Source: an uncultured Actinomycetota bacterium
Lineage (GTDB): Bacteria; Actinomycetota; Actinomycetes; Mycobacteriales; Mycobacteriaceae
Length of the DNA stretch: 64,000 nucleotides
Reading direction: 5' to 3'
NCBI GenBank assembly: GCA_963766465.1
Contig: CAVXZT010000014.1
Span: forward strand, 464,370-528,369
Shown: one piece after another, positions 3,991 through 24,215 of the stretch
How the letters are laid out: every line of letters starts with the position of its first letter
How positions within the stretch are numbered: the first letter of the stretch is position 1
Translations under genes and position numbers: made by a program
The notes under the pieces: generated by a model
Database searches by the model: none
The model's input: the letters and a program-made list of their open reading frames with translations, nothing else
What the model was told of the DNA's origin: nothing

Positions 3991-4865
3991 CGACGGTCGA
4001 GCATGTCTGGTCCGCCTGCGGGCGACGTGCGCACGCCAGCCGCGCGTGCACCGGCGTACCCCCGGCTGGCGAGCGTGTAGTCGTTCGCGTGGCGGATCGT
4101 GCGCGGGCCATGTTCGCGGTGATGAAGTTGTCAAGGACGCCCTCGCCGGGCTGTTCTGATGTCGGGCCGTTCACAGATCCAGCGTGGCGATCTGCTGACT
4201 GATGCTGTGCCCCCTCGGGATACGGGTCACTGTGTCCGGTGGGCTGATTGGGAACCCGCGTGGCGCTCTGGTTGTCAGCGGACATCTCTCTTGGGTGGAC
4301 ATCTTCGTGATTGGTGCTGTTATACGCCAGGTAGGTTGGTCGTCGGCGCTGATGCTCGTCGAGCTGGTTTGGCCTTGGTACGCTTGTCCTGCTCGACGAG
4401 AAGGCGATCCTGATCGACGTGCCAGCCTGCGCTTCGGCGACCTGACGTCGTCGGCACCGTCGCGGCCTTGTTGCGCGCAGGCGAGACGGTTCGTCGCACT
4501 CCCTGAAGGGAACCACCTGGCGCGGGTCGGCGTACGGGCTGTTCTGCCCCGCGATGTTCCAGGTCGCGGTCGACCGAAGGACGGGCTGGCTTTCCAGCTT
4601 GCTGCGGCTGAGCGATCACGAACCGCCAACGGCAGAAGGCCGTCGACACGGGCGGCCTGATGCGTCCGGCGATGATATGTCAACGGCGTCGCATCCCCCT
4701 GCTGCCGTTGTACGCCCGTGCCGCATGCGGTCGATGCCCTAGGTCGAGTCCGGCCGGGGAGCTCGCTCAAGGAACCTGTTTGTGGGACTCGGCGGCTCGC
4801 TGCGAAGTCGCGGTCCGCGGCGACGCATCGGCGCGCCGGAAGATGCCCATGCCCTGGTGGCGGAA
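3990..4865 (+). CDS. Lysophospholipid acyltransferase family protein, OlsA/PlsC-like (Rv3026c-like), heavily garbled
   Basis: GIRVTVSG...ALVVSGHLSWVDIFVIG (HX4D motif), FVALPEG, AMFQ. Boundaries approximate. Confidence 0.75.
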
Positions 4866-4901
4866 CCTCGGAGCGGTACGGTTGTTCGACGGCCTGCGAC
4901 C

Positions 4902-6177
4902 ATGGCAACGGTGACGACCTCGAACAAGACGGTCCGCATCTCGTACCACGCCGCTGACCAGCTCGATGAATCCTGCTGCCTACGAGGTGATGATTGCTGA
5001 ACTGGCGACGGTCGGCTATGGTTGTCGCCGCACGGTACTGGCTGGGTCGCGGTGCCGCTTGCATGGTAGGAAGCCTTTGAGTCGACTGGTTTGACCTGCT
5101 CGGCGTGCTGTTCCTCGGAGGTGATCCTCGACCGCGGGCGACTCTGAAGAGCGAGGAACCCCGCGAGGGAGCACCGCTACTGGCCCTGATGTGACTCGTC
5201 GCTGCGCAGCGGCGCAGGGAGGAACTGCGGCACCCCCATCGTTGAGCAACTACGTCGTTCTCGGTACGCGGCGGAGCTGGCTGCGGGATCGACGAAGGGG
5301 CGCCGAGGTCATGCGGCCGCTGAAGTTTGGCGACGACGGGCACCGTCGTGCCCGCTGCGCCTCGAAGAAGCGTTGCAGGAAGTCGACGACGACGTCGTGC
5401 TCGCGTCGATCATGTGGCCAAAGAACCAGTTGGTACGATCCCGTCGATCCCCGAATGAGTGTGTGATTCCGGAGCGGGAACCGATGTTCCTATGCACAGT
5501 GACGTTACTCAGGTGAACGGTCACATCCTCCTGTTCGACTTCAAGGCCAGCGGCCTGATCGGCCATGAGCGTCGCAGTCTACTAGTCCGGCCTCGCCCCA
5601 CGGGGCGTCGCCGGCGCTGCTGCTGGTCTGCTCGCCACGCAGCGGTCCGGCGCCGGTGCCCGCACGGTGGTGGCGAGGAAACGCGACAACCGTCCCGTCC
5701 GGGACATCCGATGTCTCGCTGGGCGGCGGGTGGCAATGGCGGCCGCCGCCAACCCCGTGATTGAGGGCTTGGCGGCCAACAGCGCTCGCGTGCAGACGTT
5801 GCGCGACCGGTTGATCGACGGCGTGCTGTCGACGATCGATGACGCGTACCTCAACGGCGCCACCGGTGATATGCGTCTGCCCGGCAACACCCACTTCACC
5901 TTCCGCGGCTGCGAAGGGCGATTCCCTGTTGATGCTGTTGGACGCCAAGGGCATCGAGTGCTCGACGGGCTCGGCGTGCACCGCAGGTGTCGCGCAGCCG
6001 TCGCATGTGCTGCTCGCGATGGGCGCCGACCCGGACAGCGCGCGCGGCTCGCTGCGGTTGTCGTTGGGCCACACCAGCACCGAGGCCGACGTCGACGCGG
6101 CGTTGGCGGTACTGCCCGCTGCGGTTGAGCGGGCGCGCCAGGCTGCGCTCGCCAGCGCGGGAGCGGCCAAGCAATGA
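4902..6177 (+). CDS. iscS: Cysteine desulfurase IscS/NifS, 5' half heavily garbled
   Basis: Clean C-terminus: [48 protein letters not shown]. Directly upstream of mnmA. Confidence 0.88.
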
Positions 6178-13888: not shown

Positions 13889-16290
<2,402 letters not shown>

Positions 16291-17191: not shown

Positions 17192-17851
17192 TCAACGCAA
17201 TATCGTTGCGATGATCCCGGCCAGATAGCCCAGCCGCGCCACCTCGGACGGGCGGAACTCTGGCCCGCCAGGCCGGCCCAGCACAAGAGCTGTGCGATGG
17301 TCGCCGAGCGGCGCGGCCGCCAGCGTGGTGTCCATGTCGCGCCACACCTGCGGCACCCAGCCTGCGGTACCGTCGAGCGCTGCGGCGTGGTCGAGGGGGA
17401 GCCACGGCGTCTCCGCCGCCTGCGTTTCGGGGGCTCCCGGACTGCCGACGATTCGTTGCGGGCGGGACTCGGTCAACTTCACGACAGTGCACCAGCCGAC
17501 GCGCAGCACGTGGGGGGCCTCGTCGACAAGCACCTGCATCTGCTTGTGTTTCCCGTCGGCCGCCGCGACGCGATCGATGAGCTCCAGCTCCCGGTGCGCC
17601 TCGAGCAGCCCGGTGTGCGGGCGGATGGCATCGACATAGACACCGTTGAGCTTTTCGGCCGCGGTGATCAGCATGTCGGGCATCGCGCCATGCGGCAGCT
17701 CGACCACCAGATCGTCGATCGCATAGCCCACGCCACGCTCGACGACGTCGAGGGACAGGATATCGGCGCCCACCGACCCAAGCGCCACGGCCAGCGAGCC
17801 GAGGCTGCCCGGTCGATCCTCTAGCTGGACACGCAGCAGATACGAAGGCAC
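17192..17851 (-). CDS. ACT domain-containing protein
   Basis: PSYLLRVQLEDRPGSLGSLAVALGSVGADILSLDVV. Usual divergent neighbour of gatC in mycobacteria. Confidence 0.88.
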   Translation of the reverse strand: MPSYLLRVQLEDRPGSLGSLAVALGSVGADILSLDVVERGVGYAIDDLVVELPHGAMPDMLITAAEKLNGVYVDAIRPHTGLLEAHRELELIDRVAAADGKHKQMQVLVDEAPHVLRVGWCTVVKLTESRPQRIVGSPGAPETQAAETPWLPLDHAAALDGTAGWVPQVWRDMDTTLAAAPLGDHRTALVLGRPGGPEFRPSEVARLGYLAGIIATILR

Positions 17852-17926
17852 GCGCAACACTGTTTCACAGCGCCACCGGCTCAGCATTCCGGGCGAGAGG
17901 GCGCGCAGGCGCGGCGCCGGACTTGA

Positions 17927-19823
17927 CCGGGAATTTCCCGTGCCCAAACCTCGTGGTTCATGCCCTGTTCTAGCCCATTCCGGCTGTCGCGGGGCGTGGC
18001 CCGGCGCTGAATGCTGCCGCGTTGCGATGTGGCGGGCGGGACGATCGGTGGGTCCGGGTGTCAGTGGTCAGCCCTACGGTGTGGATGTGCAGAGGCGTAG
18101 TCGCTTTCGCATCGAACCGACAACGGCGCCGAGCTGGAGCCGTTGAGTGAGCGCAATCCTCGTGCGCGTAAGCGTCCGAAGGGGGCACCTACCCATGTGC
18201 GATCGTGGCCGTTGCGTCCGAGTGCGGTGCAGTGCCGAGATATTCGGACGCGGTTCTTCACCGGCACAAGGGTGTACAACGCGGTGCTCGGGGAGTTCCT
18301 CGCGCGCAGCCACGCAGTGAAGTCCGATCCAGCATGGGAGATCGCTTGTCAGATGCCGCGCCGCAAGCCGGCGCAGCGGAAGGCCCGCCAGGCGGCATTC
18401 CGTCTGGTGGAGCAAACACACTGCTTTAGCGTGGAGGGTGCCCAATCGTTCGCATCCGCGCTTCGCAAGTCATGGGTGCGCGAGCATCTGCCCGCGCAAG
18501 AGGCGCAGAACCTGGGTGCGCGCGCTTTCGACGCGGTCAACAGTTGCACCTGGCGCGCAGGGGCAAGCCCCGGTTCAAGCCAGTGGCGCGTGGGTTGCGT
18601 TCAATTTCAGTCAAAGATGGCCGCGGCGCACTACGCCCGTTCGTGGATCGGAACGGTCGACTGGTCGGGCTGCAGTGGGGCGCAGGTTTCGTGATCCCGA
18701 TCGCTGCAGCGGCCAAATCAGGGCGTCGCGGTAAGGAACAGCTAGTCGAGCTGGCTGAGATCGAAGCACTGATCGCAGGCGGGCAACGTGTTGTTCACGC
18801 GGATCGTGCGCACGGTGATCGGCGGTCGCGACACCTACCGCATGCAACTCGTCATCGACGGGCATCCGACCCGCAGGCACTCAGTTGGCGACGGGCGGGT
18901 GTCATTCGACCTGGGACCGTCGAACATTGCAGTGGCTGTCGCGCGCAGCGACGGACGTGGACGGGCTGGGTGCAGCCGTTGGCTGATCGCATCGGTTTGG
19001 ACACCGCCCAATTGCGGCGCGCTCAGCGGCAGTTGGACCGCCAGCACCGCGCCGGCTCACCCGGCTGTTTCCACCCCAATGGCACTCACAAGACCGGTGG
19101 CTGCACCTGGCGGCGCTCCCGCGGTGCGGAACGCACCAAGTCGCGGGTGTCCGAGTTGCATCGCCGGTTGGCTGGGCACCGTAAGACGCTGCACGGCGCA
19201 CTGGCCAATCGATTGTTCGCCCACGGCGCCGACATGGCGTGCGAGAAGCTGGATTACATCGCATGGCAGAAGAACTTCCCGCGCAGTGTGCGGGACCGGG
19301 CACCGGGGATGCTCGTAGAGACGGTTCGTCGCAAGGCTGCAAGTGCCGGCGGCGACGCTCTCTACGAGTTCAACCCCAACACCACGGCTCTGTCTCAAAC
19401 CTGCCTGTGCGGGGATCGCACGAAAAAGCCGCTCTCCCAACGGATTCACCGCTGCGGGTGCGGAATCAAAGAACATCGGGACCTGTTCTCCGCCTACCTC
19501 GGGCTGCACGTCCGAGCCAGCGGCGATGGTCTCGATCGGCTGGACCTGGAGGCAGCCAACACCGGCTGGCTCCACCGTCAGGACATCGACGCGTTGCCGA
19601 GGCCCAGCCGCCCAACAGCACTCAACCGGCGAGGCCGCAGACACCCGCCTATGCGGAGGTCCGTGGCGCGCATCAAGGCCCGACGTAAAGCCAGGGCTGT
19701 GAAGCGACAGAGCGGGTCGGCACGAACTTCCACCACCAATCGGCCCACGGCGCTGCCGCATGAGCAACGAGACAGCCGCACGGCAGATGGTATCCCGGTC
19801 ATTCATGGTCGGGAGGATGTCAA
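17927..19823 (+). mobile_element. IS200/IS605-family element carrying tnpB only (IS1341-like, non-autonomous); left end provisional
   Basis: Right end TCCCGGTC-ATTCAT-GGTCGGGA hairpin followed by GGATGTCAA (TCAA 19820-19823). tnpB inside, no tnpA, no target duplication. Left flank ends TTGA/TTGAC at 17923-17927. Confidence 0.8.
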
Positions 19824-19860
19824 TAGGCTTTCCACTCGTGTCGCAGATCTCCCGAGATGA
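18143..19860 (+). CDS. tnpB: RNA-guided endonuclease TnpB, long type (~570 aa when three single-base indels near 18545, 18785 and 18955 are corrected)
   Basis: N-terminus PLRPS..Q...RF...[15 protein letters not shown], Ruv[10 protein letters not shown], RuvC-II ACEKLD, Zn ribbon SQTCLCG...HRCGCG, RuvC-III HRDLFSA, tail [12 protein letters not shown]. Possible upstream leaderless start at GTG 18087. Confidence 0.88.
19640..19843 (+). ncRNA. Predicted TnpB right-end guide RNA (reRNA/omegaRNA): scaffold overlapping the tnpB 3' end plus a flank-derived guide
   Basis: Inferred from the established TnpB architecture. Terminal hairpin and TCAA are seen; guide would begin at 19824 (TAGGCTTTCCACTCGTGTCG). 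5' boundary is a guess. Confidence 0.55.
19824..19837 (+). promoter_or_regulatory. -10 box of a probable leaderless gatC promoter
   Basis: TAGGCT-N8-GTG, the same spacing seen at serA (36410-36424). No Shine-Dalgarno. Confidence 0.7.
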
Positions 19861-20137
19861 GGTAGCCCACCTCGCCCGACTGGCCCGGCTCGCGCTGACC
19901 GATGAAGAGCTGGACAGCTACGCGGGCCAGCTCGACGCCATCCTCGAGCACGTCAGCCAGATCCAGGGTGTCGACGTCACCGGCGTCGAACCCACGGGCA
20001 ATCCGCTGAAGGACGTCAACGTGTTCCGCAGCGACGTCGTCGAGCCGTGCCTGACCCAGGAGGAGGCGCTGGCCCAGGCGCCCAAGGCGGTCGACGGCCG
20101 GTTCGCCGTCCCGCGGATTCTGGGGGAGGCCGAATGA
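19838..20137 (+). CDS. gatC: Asp/Glu-tRNA amidotransferase subunit C
   Basis: [20 protein letters not shown]...FAVPRILGE. Confidence 0.96.
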
Positions 20138-21619
20138 GCACCGAGCTCATCCGGCTCGACGCGGCCACGCTGGGGGCCAAGATCGCCGCCAAGGAGGTGT
20201 CGTCGACCGAGGCGACGCGGGCGTGCCTGGATCAGATCGCCGAGACCGACGACAAATACCACGCGTTTCTGCACGTGGCGGAGGAGAAGGCGCTGGCCGA
20301 GGCGGCCCGCGTAGACGCGGCCGTTGCGGCGGGGGAGTCGCTGCCGTCGCCGCTGGCCGGCGTGCCGCTGGCGCTCAAGGACGTGTTCACCACCACCGAC
20401 ATGCCGACTACCTGCGGATCGAAGATCCTCGAGGGGTGGACGTCGCCGTACGACGCCACCGTCACCGCGCGGCTGCGAGCGGCGGGCATCCCGATCCTTG
20501 GCAAGACGAACATGGACGAGTTCGCGATGGGCAGCTCCACCGAGAACTCGGCGTACGGTCCGACCCGCAACCCGTGGAACGTCGACCGCGTGCCGGGTGG
20601 TTCGGGCGGCGGCAGCGCGGCGGCGCTGGCCGCATTCCAGGCGCCGCTGGCCATCGGATCCGACACCGGCGGCTCGATTCGCCAGCCCGCCGCGTTGACG
20701 GCGACGGTTGGCGTGAAGCCCACGTACGGCACGGTGTCGCGGTACGGGCTGATCGCCTGCGCGTCATCGCTGGACCAGGGTGGCCCGTGCGCACGCACCG
20801 TGCTCGACACCGCGCTGCTGCATCAGGTGATCGCCGGGCACGACCCGAAGGACTCCACCTCGGTCGAGGCCAAGGTGCCCGACGTGGTCGCCGCGGCCAG
20901 GGCAGGAGCGTCCGGTGATCTCAAGGGCGTGCGGATCGGCGTGGTCAAGCAGTTGCGCGGCGACGGCTATCAGGCCGGGGTGCTGACGTCGTTCAACGCC
21001 GCGGTCGAGCAGCTCACCGACGCTGGGCGCCGAGGTCAGCGAGGTCGACTGCCCGCACTTCGACTTCTCGCTGCCTGCGTACTACCTGATCCTGCCGTCG
21101 GAGGTGTCGTCGAACCTGGCGCGCTTCGACGCGATGCGCTACGGACTGCGGGTGGGCGATGACGGCACGCACAGCGCCGAGGAAGTGATGGCACTGACCC
21201 GCGCCGCGGGATTCGGCCCAGAAGTCAAGCGCCGCATCATGATTGGCACATACGCGCTGTCCGCGGGCTACTACGACGCCTATTACAACCAGGCGCAAAA
21301 GGTCCGCACGCTGATCGCGCGCGACCTCGACGAGGCCTACAAGAACGTCGACGTGCTGATCTCGCCCGCCACCCCGACCACCGCGTTCCCGCTGGGGGAG
21401 AAGGTCGACGACCCGCTGGCGATGTACCTGTTCGACCTGTGCACGCTGCCGCTGAACCTGGCCGGGCACTGCGGAATGTCGGTGCCGTCGGGCCTGTCGC
21501 CGGACGACAATCTGCCCGTCGGCCTGCAGATCATGGCGCCTGCGCTGGCCGACGACCGGCTCTACCGGGTCGGCGCCGCCTACGAAGCTGCACGAGGTCC
21601 GCTGCCAACGGCGGTCTGA
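20134..21619 (+). CDS. gatA: Asp/Glu-tRNA amidotransferase subunit A, one indel near 21025
   Basis: Amidase signature [40 protein letters not shown]. Confidence 0.96.
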
Positions 21620-21636
21620 CGGGGGAGGATGAGGCC

Positions 21637-22670
21637 ATGCGGATCGGAGTTCTCACCGGCGGCGGTGACTGTCCTGGCCTGAACGCGGTGATCCGGGCGG
21701 TGGTGCGCACCAGCAACGTGCGATACGGGTCCACGGTGGTCGGATTCCTGGACGGGTGGCGCGGTCTGCTCGAAGACCGGCGGATCCAGCTGGCCAACGA
21801 CGACCGCAACGACCGGCTGCTCGCCAAGGGCGGGACCATGCTGGGCACCGCCCGGGTCAACCCGGACAAGCTGCGGGCCGGCCTGCCCCAGATCAAGCAG
21901 ACCCTCGACGACAACGGCATCGACGTGCTGATCCCGATCGGCGGCGAGGGCACGTTGACCGCAGCGCACTGGCTCTCCGAGGAGAACGTTCCGGTGGTCG
22001 GGGTGCCCAAGACCATCGACAACGACATCGACTGCACCGATGTGACATTCGGGCACGACACCGCGCTGCAGGTTGCGACCGAGGCGATCGACCGGCTGCA
22101 CAGCACCGCAGAGTCGCATCAGCGCGTGATGCTGGTCGAGGTGATGGGCCGCCACGCCGGCTGGATCGCGTTGAACTCGGGTCTGGCCTCCGGTGCGCAC
22201 ATGACGCTGATCCCCGAGCAGCCGTTCGATGTCGAAGAGGTGTGCCGGTTGGTCAAACAGCGCTTCGTACGCGGTGATTCGCACTTCATCTGTGTCGTGG
22301 CCGAAGGGCGCGAAACCCGCCGAGGGCACGATGCAGCTGCGCCAAGGCGGCATGGACGAGTTCGGCCACGAGAAGTTCACCGGTGTGGCCGCGCAGCTGG
22401 CCGTCGAGGTGGAGAAGCGGATCAAGAAAGAGGTTCGCGTGACCGTGCTCGGGCCACGTGCAGCGTGGCGGCACGCCGACGGCGTACGACCGGGTGCTGG
22501 CTACGCGGTTCGGCGTCAACGCCGCCGACGCCGCGCATGCCGGCGAGTACGGGATGATGGTGTCGCTGCGCGGCCAGGACATCGGCCGGGTGTCGTTGGC
22601 CGACGCGGTGCGCCAGCTGAAGCTGGTACCGCAGAGCCGCTACGACGACGCCGCTGAGTTCTTCGGCTGA
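21637..22670 (+). CDS. pfkA: 6-phosphofructokinase, indels near 22310 and 22455
   Basis: [51 protein letters not shown]. Confidence 0.95.
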
Positions 22671-22705
22671 CGAGGCCTTCCGTACCGATTACTAGGATCG
22701 AGACC

Positions 22706-24215
22706 ATGACCGTCGCTTCCGCCGCCGAATTGATCGACTACGACGACGTCGTGGCGCGCTACGAACCCGTGCTCGGGCTCGAGGTGCACGTCGAACTGTC
22801 CACCGCGACCAAGATGTTCTGCGGCTGTGCCAACAAGTTCGGCGCCGAGCCCAACACCCAGGTGTGCCCCGTGTGCCTTGGTCTGCCCGGATCACTGCCG
22901 GTGCTCAACCAAGAGGCGGTGGAGTCCGCGATCCGCATCGGGCTTGGCGCTCAACTGCGAGATCGCGCCGTGGGGGCGGTTCGCCAGGAAGAACTACTTC
23001 TATCCGGACCAGCCGAAGAACTACCAGATCAGCCAGTACGACGAGCCGATCGCGATCAACGGCTACCTCGACGTCCCGCTCGACGACGGCACCACCTGGC
23101 GGGTGGAGATCGAGCGCGCCCACATGGAGGAGGACACCGGCAAGCTGACCCACCTCGGCAGCGACACCGGCCGCATCGAGGGTGCGACGACGTCGCTGCT
23201 CGACTACAACCGCGCCGGCGTGCCGCTGATCGAGATCGTCACTAAGCCGATCGAAGGGACCGGTGCGCGCGCACCGGAGATCGCCCGCGCCTACGTGACG
23301 GCATTGCGGGACCTGTTGCGCGCGCTTGGGTGTCTCCGATGTCCGGATGGATCAGGGTTCGATGCGCTGCGACGTCAACGCCTCACTCAAGCCGATCGGG
23401 CAGAAGGAGTTCGGCACCCGCACCGAGACCAAGAACGTCAACTCGCTGAAAAGCGTTGAGGTGGCGGTCCGTTACGAGATGCGGCGCCAGGCAGCGGTTC
23501 TCGATGCCGGCGGCAAGGTGCACCAGGAGACCCGGCACTTCCACGAGGACGGCTACACCTCGCCGGGCCGCAGCAAGGAGACCGCGGAGGACTACCGCTA
23601 CTTCCCCGAACCGGACCTGGAGCCGGTGGCACCGAGCGCCGAGCTGGTCGACCGGCTGCGCACCACCATTCCCGAGCTACCGTGGCTGAGCCGCAAGCGA
23701 ATTCAGGAAGACTGGGGCATCTCCGACGAGGTGATGCGCGACCTGCGTCAACATCGGCGCGATCGACCTGATCGCCGCCACCGTCGCGCAGGGCGCATCC
23801 AGTGAGCCCGCACGCGCCTGGTGGGGAAACTTCCTGGTGCAGAAGGCCAATGAAGCTGGCGTGGCGAAGTCACGAATTGCCGATCACGCCGGAGCAGGTG
23901 GCGGCGGTGGTCAAACTCGTCGACGAAGGCAAGCTGTCCAACAAGCTGGCCCGCCAGGTCGTCGAGGGGGTGCTGGCCGGTGAGGGCGAACCCGAGCAGG
24001 TGATGACCGATCGCGGGCTGGCCGTCGTACGCGACGACTCGTTGATCCAGGCCGCCGTCGACGAGGCGCTGGCCGCCAATCCCGATGTGGCCGAGAAGAT
24101 CCGCGGCGGCAAGGTGGCTGCGGCCGGCGCGATCGTCGGCGCGGTGATGAAGGCGACGAAGGGTCAGGCCGACGCCGCGCGGGTGCGCGAACTGGTGCTG
24201 GCCGCCTGTAGCTAG
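22706..24215 (+). CDS. gatB: Asp/Glu-tRNA amidotransferase subunit B, about four indels
   Basis: [59 protein letters not shown]. Confidence 0.96.

Follow-up and report, generated by a model that had tools for sequence, protein, structure and literature searches.

Locus, boundaries and origin of the element

The DNA analysed here, which we call the window, is a 64,000-nucleotide stretch from an uncultured member of the Mycobacteriaceae (GenBank assembly GCA_963766465.1, contig CAVXZT010000014.1, positions 464,370 to 528,369 of the forward strand); it is high in GC, at ~65-70%, and all coordinates below are those of the window unless a locus is named. At 17928-19823, between an ACT-domain gene and gatC, it holds a 1,896-bp element with a gene for a TnpB protein, and we give a probability of roughly 0.7 to the reading that this is a non-autonomous insertion sequence (IS) of the IS200/IS605 family, which has lost its transposase gene tnpA, has kept both of its ends and carries a tnpB that is probably intact. 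The tnpB is of a long form that encodes ~540-560 amino acids (18084-19860, plus strand), starting either at GTG 18084, as in its relatives, or at TTG 18143, and with the family stop TGA at 19761-19763. An earlier note on this DNA, made from the letters alone, had seen here a lone system with neither tnpA nor a CRISPR array nearby. Both absences hold: no tnpA turned up in the whole genome, and tandem, spaced direct or CRISPR-like repeats were not found anywhere in the 8-30 kb interval. The description as an orphan system does not hold, since this is a normal IS200/IS605 element with both ends, whose sister copies carry a Y1 tnpA. It is, in other words, a tnpA-deleted member of an ordinary and widespread mycobacterial IS200/IS605 family that is common in Mycobacterium.

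What a complete element of this family looks like is defined by two copies in one genome (L037 and L038), which are 99.96% identical over exactly a ~2,257-bp unit. Full copies contain, within the 500 bp on the upstream side of their tnpB, a divergent tnpA for a 125-residue Y1 transposase (Pfam PF01797, E-value 9.5e-32; NF033573, 100 bits; in L037 at 4698-5075 on the minus strand), and most family loci contain this gene in intact or decayed form. The left end of the window copy (17928-18020, plus strand) can be aligned to those of 26 sister copies, and the first tnpA codons follow it almost without a break, so the tnpA coding sequence has been deleted; alignment with full copies sizes the loss at ~375 bp and identifies 18021-18083, on the same strand, as a remnant of the tnpA 5' end together with the tnpA-tnpB spacer. 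Similar derivatives that lack tnpA exist at five other loci (L010, L014, L016, L008 and L044). A copy truncated on its 5' side and devoid of a left end, as blastn homology beginning at ~18025-18046 would have it, is ruled out by the 26-copy alignment. DNA folds of the left ends of the window copy and of L037, set side by side, reveal that hairpin 1 is degraded in the window and that hairpin 2 (CGCGGGGCGTGGCCCGGCG) is kept with one mismatch.

The other boundary is just as sharp. The right-end terminus AGGATGTCAA (19814-19823, plus strand) is a variant of the family consensus AGGACGTCAA, which closes the right end in nearly all copies; the right end finishes in GACGTCAA, flanks differ immediately past TCAA in 46 copies, and the element accordingly ends at 19823. 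The empty site tells the same story: it was found in all 18 of the same-genus genomes sampled, where the distance from the ACT-domain gene to gatC is only 63-100 bp, and the homology of the window to these relatives picks up again exactly at 19824. A TAGGCT box lying ~8 nucleotides before the gatC GTG is common to all of the empty-site relatives, one of which reads GTGAC directly followed by TAGGCT, and in the window this box comes directly after TCAA. The element was inserted at TTGAC (the window reads CTTGAC), abutting the TAGGCT box of gatC. The four bases TGAC themselves (17924-17927, plus strand) are found at this position in 25 of 27 aligned copies, with unrelated sequence 5' of them, and by analogy with IS608, ISDra2 and IS200/IS605 biology in general we infer that they serve as insertion target and transposon-adjacent motif (TAM). 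Among the TAMs that had been guessed at earlier, TTGAC contains the tetranucleotide to which the insertion sites point, and TGAT was not seen. For annotators, the practical gain is that the element boundaries are now fixed at 17928-19823.

The resemblance to the classical ISDra2 of Deinococcus radiodurans and IS608 of Helicobacter pylori is considerable. Sister copies pair a divergent Y1 tnpA with tnpB, subterminal hairpins lie at both ends, the element goes in on the 3' side of a short conserved tetranucleotide, the protein has the TnpB fold (8h1j, 8exa) and the 3' end is conserved in an omega-RNA-like manner; in addition, the right end of IS608 finishes in TCAA, as does that of the present family. 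The window copy differs from both in having lost tnpA, which gives it the layout of IS1341-type elements, the tnpB-only derivatives of IS605 that consist of left end, tnpB and right end without a transposase. The difference from these is that here the deletion is visible inside a two-gene element, whose first tnpA codons remain, and that the genome contains no cognate TnpA. Indeed, a Y1 transposase (PF01797) was found neither near tnpB nor elsewhere in the source genome, which is 95.5% complete, and because of this, together with the degraded state of hairpin 1 in its left end, the window copy is probably immobile and stuck in place.

The same genome has ~10 canonical TnpB genes of other families above the NF040570 cut-off (loci L079-L086), which we would guess belong to IS607-type elements. 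It also has, outside the window, a second copy of the long TnpB family at 72% nucleotide identity (G000:C8:183156-184286; locus L002:1447-2577), which is one open frame of ~1.1 kb broken off just before the RuvC-II Glu, and which is without the TNB domain, the last Asp and the right end.

As for the surroundings, the gene order is ACT-domain gene (minus strand, ending near 17887), tnpB element, gatC (GTG 19838), gatA and pfkA, with the neighbourhood as a whole made up of the ACT-domain gene, gatCAB, pfkA and ligA; we take this to match the mycobacterial Rv3013-gatC-gatA-pfkA region. The start of the ACT-domain gene is listed at TTG 17947. Relatives suggest an ATG instead (complement CAT at 17885-17887), and with that start the gene would stop short of the left end of the transposon.

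Frame changes in tnpB and in its neighbours

Read as assembled, tnpB is scattered over two frames: translation in three frames follows frame 2 from TTG 18143, frame 1 from near 18540, frame 2 from near 18777 and frame 1 from near 18954, with this final frame open to a stop at 19858-19860. Alignment with intact relatives places the three changes, all on the plus strand, as a 1-nucleotide deletion after 18540 (frame 2 to frame 1), a 1-nucleotide insertion at 18777 (frame 1 to frame 2) and a 1-nucleotide deletion after 18954 (frame 2 to frame 1). The earlier note had called these three single-G indels; three single-base indels they are, and which base is concerned is not something the alignment can tell. 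Two further 1-nucleotide gaps flank this core. The first, after 18126 relative to the relatives, lies upstream of TTG 18143 and matters only if the gene starts at GTG 18084. The second, after 19754, takes the family stop TGA at 19761-19763 out of frame and so accounts for the read-through to 19860 and for the length of ~570 amino acids that had been proposed. The excess in that figure thus comes from an out-of-frame stop, and the larger size as such is genuine, since isolate genomes (including Mycobacterium sp. RTGN6, Mycobacterium sp. SM1 and Mycolicibacterium frederiksbergense) encode these proteins in one open frame of 554-566 amino acids. The gap after 19754 may itself be real, because L012 has the same gap; L010 has TGG there.

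Are the remaining frame changes properties of the organism or of its assembly? We approached this at the level of proteins: G001, a complete genome from within the genus, supplied the open reading frames of its syntenic region, and these were compared with the window by tblastn; counting non-triplet indels against G001 at the nucleotide level had proved too noisy at ~80% identity, with compensating gap pairs everywhere. Between 1.2 and 29.7 kb, the window has ~18 frame changes relative to G001 orthologues in ~13.5 kb of conserved genes (~1.3 per kb), with nearly all of these genes affected, at 1-4 changes each, and between 30 and 64 kb it has none. The genes affected include ligA (two changes, 13889-15990), gatA (one, 19909-21616), pfkA (two, 21325-22667) and gatB (four, 22685-24209), and because these are essential genes, their shifts must be assembly errors. 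By a rough Poisson estimate with 1.3 indels expected per kb, four of them in 1.6 kb have a probability of ~0.17, so that tnpB is not an outlier in its own neighbourhood. The first ~30 kb of the window are, in short, a low-quality stretch of assembly, and apparent pseudogenes in it are not to be trusted.

The protein that emerges when the frame changes are bridged contains no internal stop. Of the 94 residues that never vary among 20 relatives it keeps 92, and of the 247 that are invariant in 16 close relatives it keeps 240, where intact relatives, treated by leave-one-out, differ at 1-12 such positions. The family's other copy in this genome, on contig C8, also speaks for intactness, with its single open frame of 1.1 kb. 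The catalytic triad (the Asp of FDLGP, the Glu of CEKLD and the Asp of RDLFSA), the zinc ribbon (CLCG...RCGCG), the His/Cys insert and the RRGRRHPP...ARIKARRKA tail all occupy alignment columns that are invariant, or nearly so, in 20 relatives, which bears out what had been read from the letters alone about the triad, the ribbon, the insert and the Arg-rich tail. Judged by these sequence comparisons, the 1-nucleotide frame changes are most likely assembly errors, and for this reason we consider it probable, at roughly three chances to one, that tnpB is intact in the organism. The earlier suggestion of frameshift errors in an intact gene is therefore plausible, given that frame changes are about as frequent in the essential genes nearby and that conserved residues are kept.

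The alternative that deserves most respect, which we regard as unlikely and yet as a serious contender, is that the frameshifts are real and that what we see is a tnpB pseudogene in a decaying, immobile IS fragment without function. The deletion of tnpA and the degraded first left-end hairpin would fit such a remnant, as would a genome that is without a Y1 transposase and yet contains another truncated copy of the family. So would the five 1-nucleotide gaps in 1.7 kb and the change of one invariant Trp. Against it stand the like shifts in ligA, gatA, gatB and pfkA on both sides, which cannot be real, and a bridged reading that is stop-free and keeps invariant residues at the level of intact relatives.

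Several observations do weigh against our preferred reading of a tnpA-less element with an intact tnpB, and we would rather gather them here than scatter them. The indel density of tnpB, at three core and five total in ~1.7 kb, is somewhat above the ~1.3 per kb of the surroundings (gatB has four in 1.5 kb), the invariant Trp that reads Leu lies 5 nucleotides downstream of the 18540 indel, and the tnpB indels may, of course, be real. In profile searches, the longest piece from the window scores 25.8 bits on PF07282, the profile of the zinc-ribbon TNB domain that is inserted in RuvC, for which the cut-off is 26.3, and the family's scores on NCBIfam NF040570 (guided_TnpB), at 80.6 and 74.8 bits, are below the curated cut-off of 100. 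Finally, a TGAC that lies outside the element is not separable from a TGAC that forms its first four bases without a close empty allele.

A conserved 3' end and the gatC flank

The last 240 nucleotides of the element are strongly conserved in 42 copies, including ~65 nucleotides past the stop codon, and we regard 19584-19823 (plus strand) as a candidate omega-RNA scaffold, composed of the 3' end of tnpB with its Arg-rich tail codons and of the non-coding right end, with a 5' boundary that is approximate. A consensus fold of the 42 copies contains a terminal stem-loop, CCCGGTCA-TTCA-TGGTCGGG (19794-19813, plus strand), in which five pairs show compensatory changes. The version in the window is good as RNA, where it has two G-U pairs, and poor in a DNA fold. 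Searched against Rfam, the interval 17800-20000 had no match at an E-value of 1 or below.

The coding part of this region gives a further hint. For the codons that specify one and the same amino acid in all 16 relatives compared, we asked how often the third position is fully identical as well: this is so for ~45% in the last 80 codons, compared with 5-25% elsewhere in the gene. Because of this excess of third-position identity over the last ~80 codons, the sequence of the Arg-rich tail is under a second constraint, in excess of that from coding, which is most simply an RNA scaffold. An omega-RNA that overlaps the tail, built from the tnpB 3' end and the right end, would thus explain at the level of annotation why the tail is there, namely as sequence in common with the omega-RNA.

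From this follows a proposal for how an intact element would work, and we offer it as such. The 3' end of the tnpB transcript and the right end would fold into an omega-RNA, with a guide formed by the 16-20 nucleotides after TCAA (TAGGCTTTCCACTCGTG...). By analogy with what is understood of TnpB biology, TnpB and this RNA would then cut DNA in which TGAC is followed by a match to the guide, that is to say, the element-free allele or the donor joint, and such cutting would favour retention of the element, or its homing by recombination. The occupied site should be spared, because what stands in front of the guide match there is the right end rather than TGAC. A tetranucleotide motif of this sort would not be without precedent, since TnpB of ISAba30 from Acinetobacter baumannii (406 amino acids) has a reported TAM of TGAC (PMC10787141); in the present family, the same motif is deduced from insertion sites only.

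In the window, the flank that would template the guide (TAGGCTTTCCACTCGTGTCG; 19824-19843, plus strand) happens to have both the TAGGCT box and the gatC start GTG at 19838 within it, although its role as a guide is presumed from TnpB biology. The box looks like the -10 box of a leaderless gatCAB transcript. The sequence 5' of this box is now all transposon, and read-out from tnpB could enter gatC.

Such an arrangement invites the thought that TnpB has been domesticated, either in the manner of the TldRs or by some other host recruitment, and now regulates gatCAB by means of a fixed guide on the gatC promoter region. A flank covering box and start codon, in a copy that is probably immobile, speaks for it; we nevertheless find the idea very improbable, given that the catalytic triad is intact here, whereas it is lost in TldRs, that the site is empty in every one of the 18 genus relatives sampled, so that there is no conserved synteny, and that the element's own locus should not be a target at all, having the right end instead of TGAC before the guide match.

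The protein, its relatives and its distance from Cas12

For structural work we let the closest intact relative (L003, 83% identical over the C-terminal query) stand in for the window protein. Its AlphaFold2 model has a mean pLDDT (predicted local distance difference test) of 70.7, with high values at residues 30-390 and low values in the N-terminal 27 residues and after ~430. The top Foldseek matches of this model are 8h1j (ISDra2 TnpB), 8iaz (ISFba1 TnpB) and 8exa (ISDra2 TnpB), at E-values of 1e-11 to 3e-13 (8h1j_A, 2.6e-13) and with a probability of 1.0 for all three, at TM-scores that are modest (0.34-0.50); structures of Cas12f, Cas12m and LaTranC rank below the TnpBs. As far as a predicted model can say, the family shares the bilobed fold of TnpB and Cas12, with its WED, REC, RuvC and TNB domains, and the earlier identification as a TnpB with an intact triad is borne out by the conserved motifs and by the fold of this relative alike. 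Profile scores place the family as a divergent branch of TnpB: intact relatives pass the PF07282 cut-off (L003 with 29.8 bits and L008 with 29.5), and the NF040570 match extends over profile positions 66-384 at an E-value of 1.3e-22. Relatives from Acidithiobacillus, at 39% identity, have been named TnpB by PGAP.

Where does the additional length come from? The proteins of ISDra2 and IS608 are ~150 amino acids shorter (408 against 554-566), and there are four sources of the difference: a basic and disordered N-terminus, a larger helical REC region (residues 47-155), a loop in the RuvC domain and a basic C-terminal tail of ~85 amino acids. The loop lies between RuvC-I and RuvC-II, where it connects two long helices of the RuvC domain, and in it H321, C328 and H335 are invariant and C340 is nearly so; this conserved H-C-H-C arrangement, which ISDra2 and IS608 do not have, is possibly a metal site.

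None of this is confined to a handful of sequences. A search with the C-terminal piece returns hundreds of proteins at 70-83% identity, mainly from soil metagenomes and Mycobacterium, and a scan of species-representative genomes yields 60 loci in Mycobacterium, Mycolicibacterium, Mycolicibacter and a few metagenome-assembled genomes (MAGs) of distant actinomycetes, often several per genome. A profile built from 20 full-length relatives recovers, at E-values of 1e-30 or below, 683 clusters (50% identity), mostly of 480-600 amino acids, and the long TnpBs are therefore a large clade. The notion that they might be a small one can thus be dropped, and in annotation the 'long TnpB' architecture is to be treated as the mark of this clade, not as an oddity. 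Our literature search found no paper on this mycobacterial TnpB family.

The earlier note had also proposed a clade between TnpB and the small Cas12 proteins, and here the evidence points the other way, given that the top structural matches are TnpBs and that the family profile misses Cas12m2. Searched against the PDB at an E-value of 0.01 or below, this profile finds only LaTranC and one TnpB, with the Glu and the last Asp of the triad aligned to RuvC motifs of LaTranC. A specific affinity to Cas12m, which we looked for, did not emerge: Cas12m2 is not among the PDB matches at this threshold, and in the genome of Mycobacterium sp. SM1, listed with a Cas12m2 (PMC10442227), the profile hits copies of its own family and nothing else. 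Cas12m2 of Mycolicibacterium mucogenicum (type V-M, 596 amino acids) resembles the present protein in size class, in host group and in having a core that resembles TnpB and includes a TNB zinc finger, and differs in its non-canonical RuvC site (His, Asp, Asp), its REC2 coiled-coil insert and its CRISPR array (PMC10442227); the present protein has a canonical D/E/D, lies between transposon ends and has no array. That it might be no transposon nuclease but a transitional or CRISPR-type effector, for example an early Cas12 with ties to Cas12m or Cas12f, is the least credible of the readings: a length of ~555 amino acids close to the 596 of Cas12m2 (PMC10442227), the presence of Cas12f and Cas12m among the Foldseek matches and a weak match to NF038192 (c2c8; E-value 4e-5) can be cited for it, as against a gene between transposon ends, sister copies with tnpA, TnpB structures that rank first, a profile that misses Cas12m2 and no repeat array, with no family copies seen next to CRISPR arrays in the 60 loci.

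For biology at large, the window copy is of little consequence, being one more tnpA-less copy of a widespread mycobacterial family of IS605 type. Intact members of the family, for which a simple TGAC motif has been inferred, could be considered as editing tools for actinobacteria of high GC content. It is also conceivable, if rather doubtful, that the long-form clade, with its basic N-terminal extension and enlarged REC region, its H-C-H-C loop and its basic tail, works unlike the 400-residue model TnpBs, perhaps by binding a longer heteroduplex or by using a second structural metal site to grip the RNA. If this were true, an intact mycobacterial member could serve as a native nuclease for editing high-GC genomes.

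Two side observations concern how these elements move. In the full copies L037 and L038, both from one MAG, the tnpB genes (L037:5134-6807 and L038:5134-6807) encode VSFGLGPS, in which a Gly replaces the RuvC-I Asp, and inactivation of the nuclease seems to have preceded the transposition of this element, which fits a TnpB that is dispensable for transposition. Finally, a 344-kb plasmid of Mycobacterium avium carries a 77%-identical copy of the TnpB gene (NZ_CP076860.1:146728-148158), annotated merely as 'transposase', and this suggests a route by which the family spreads between species.

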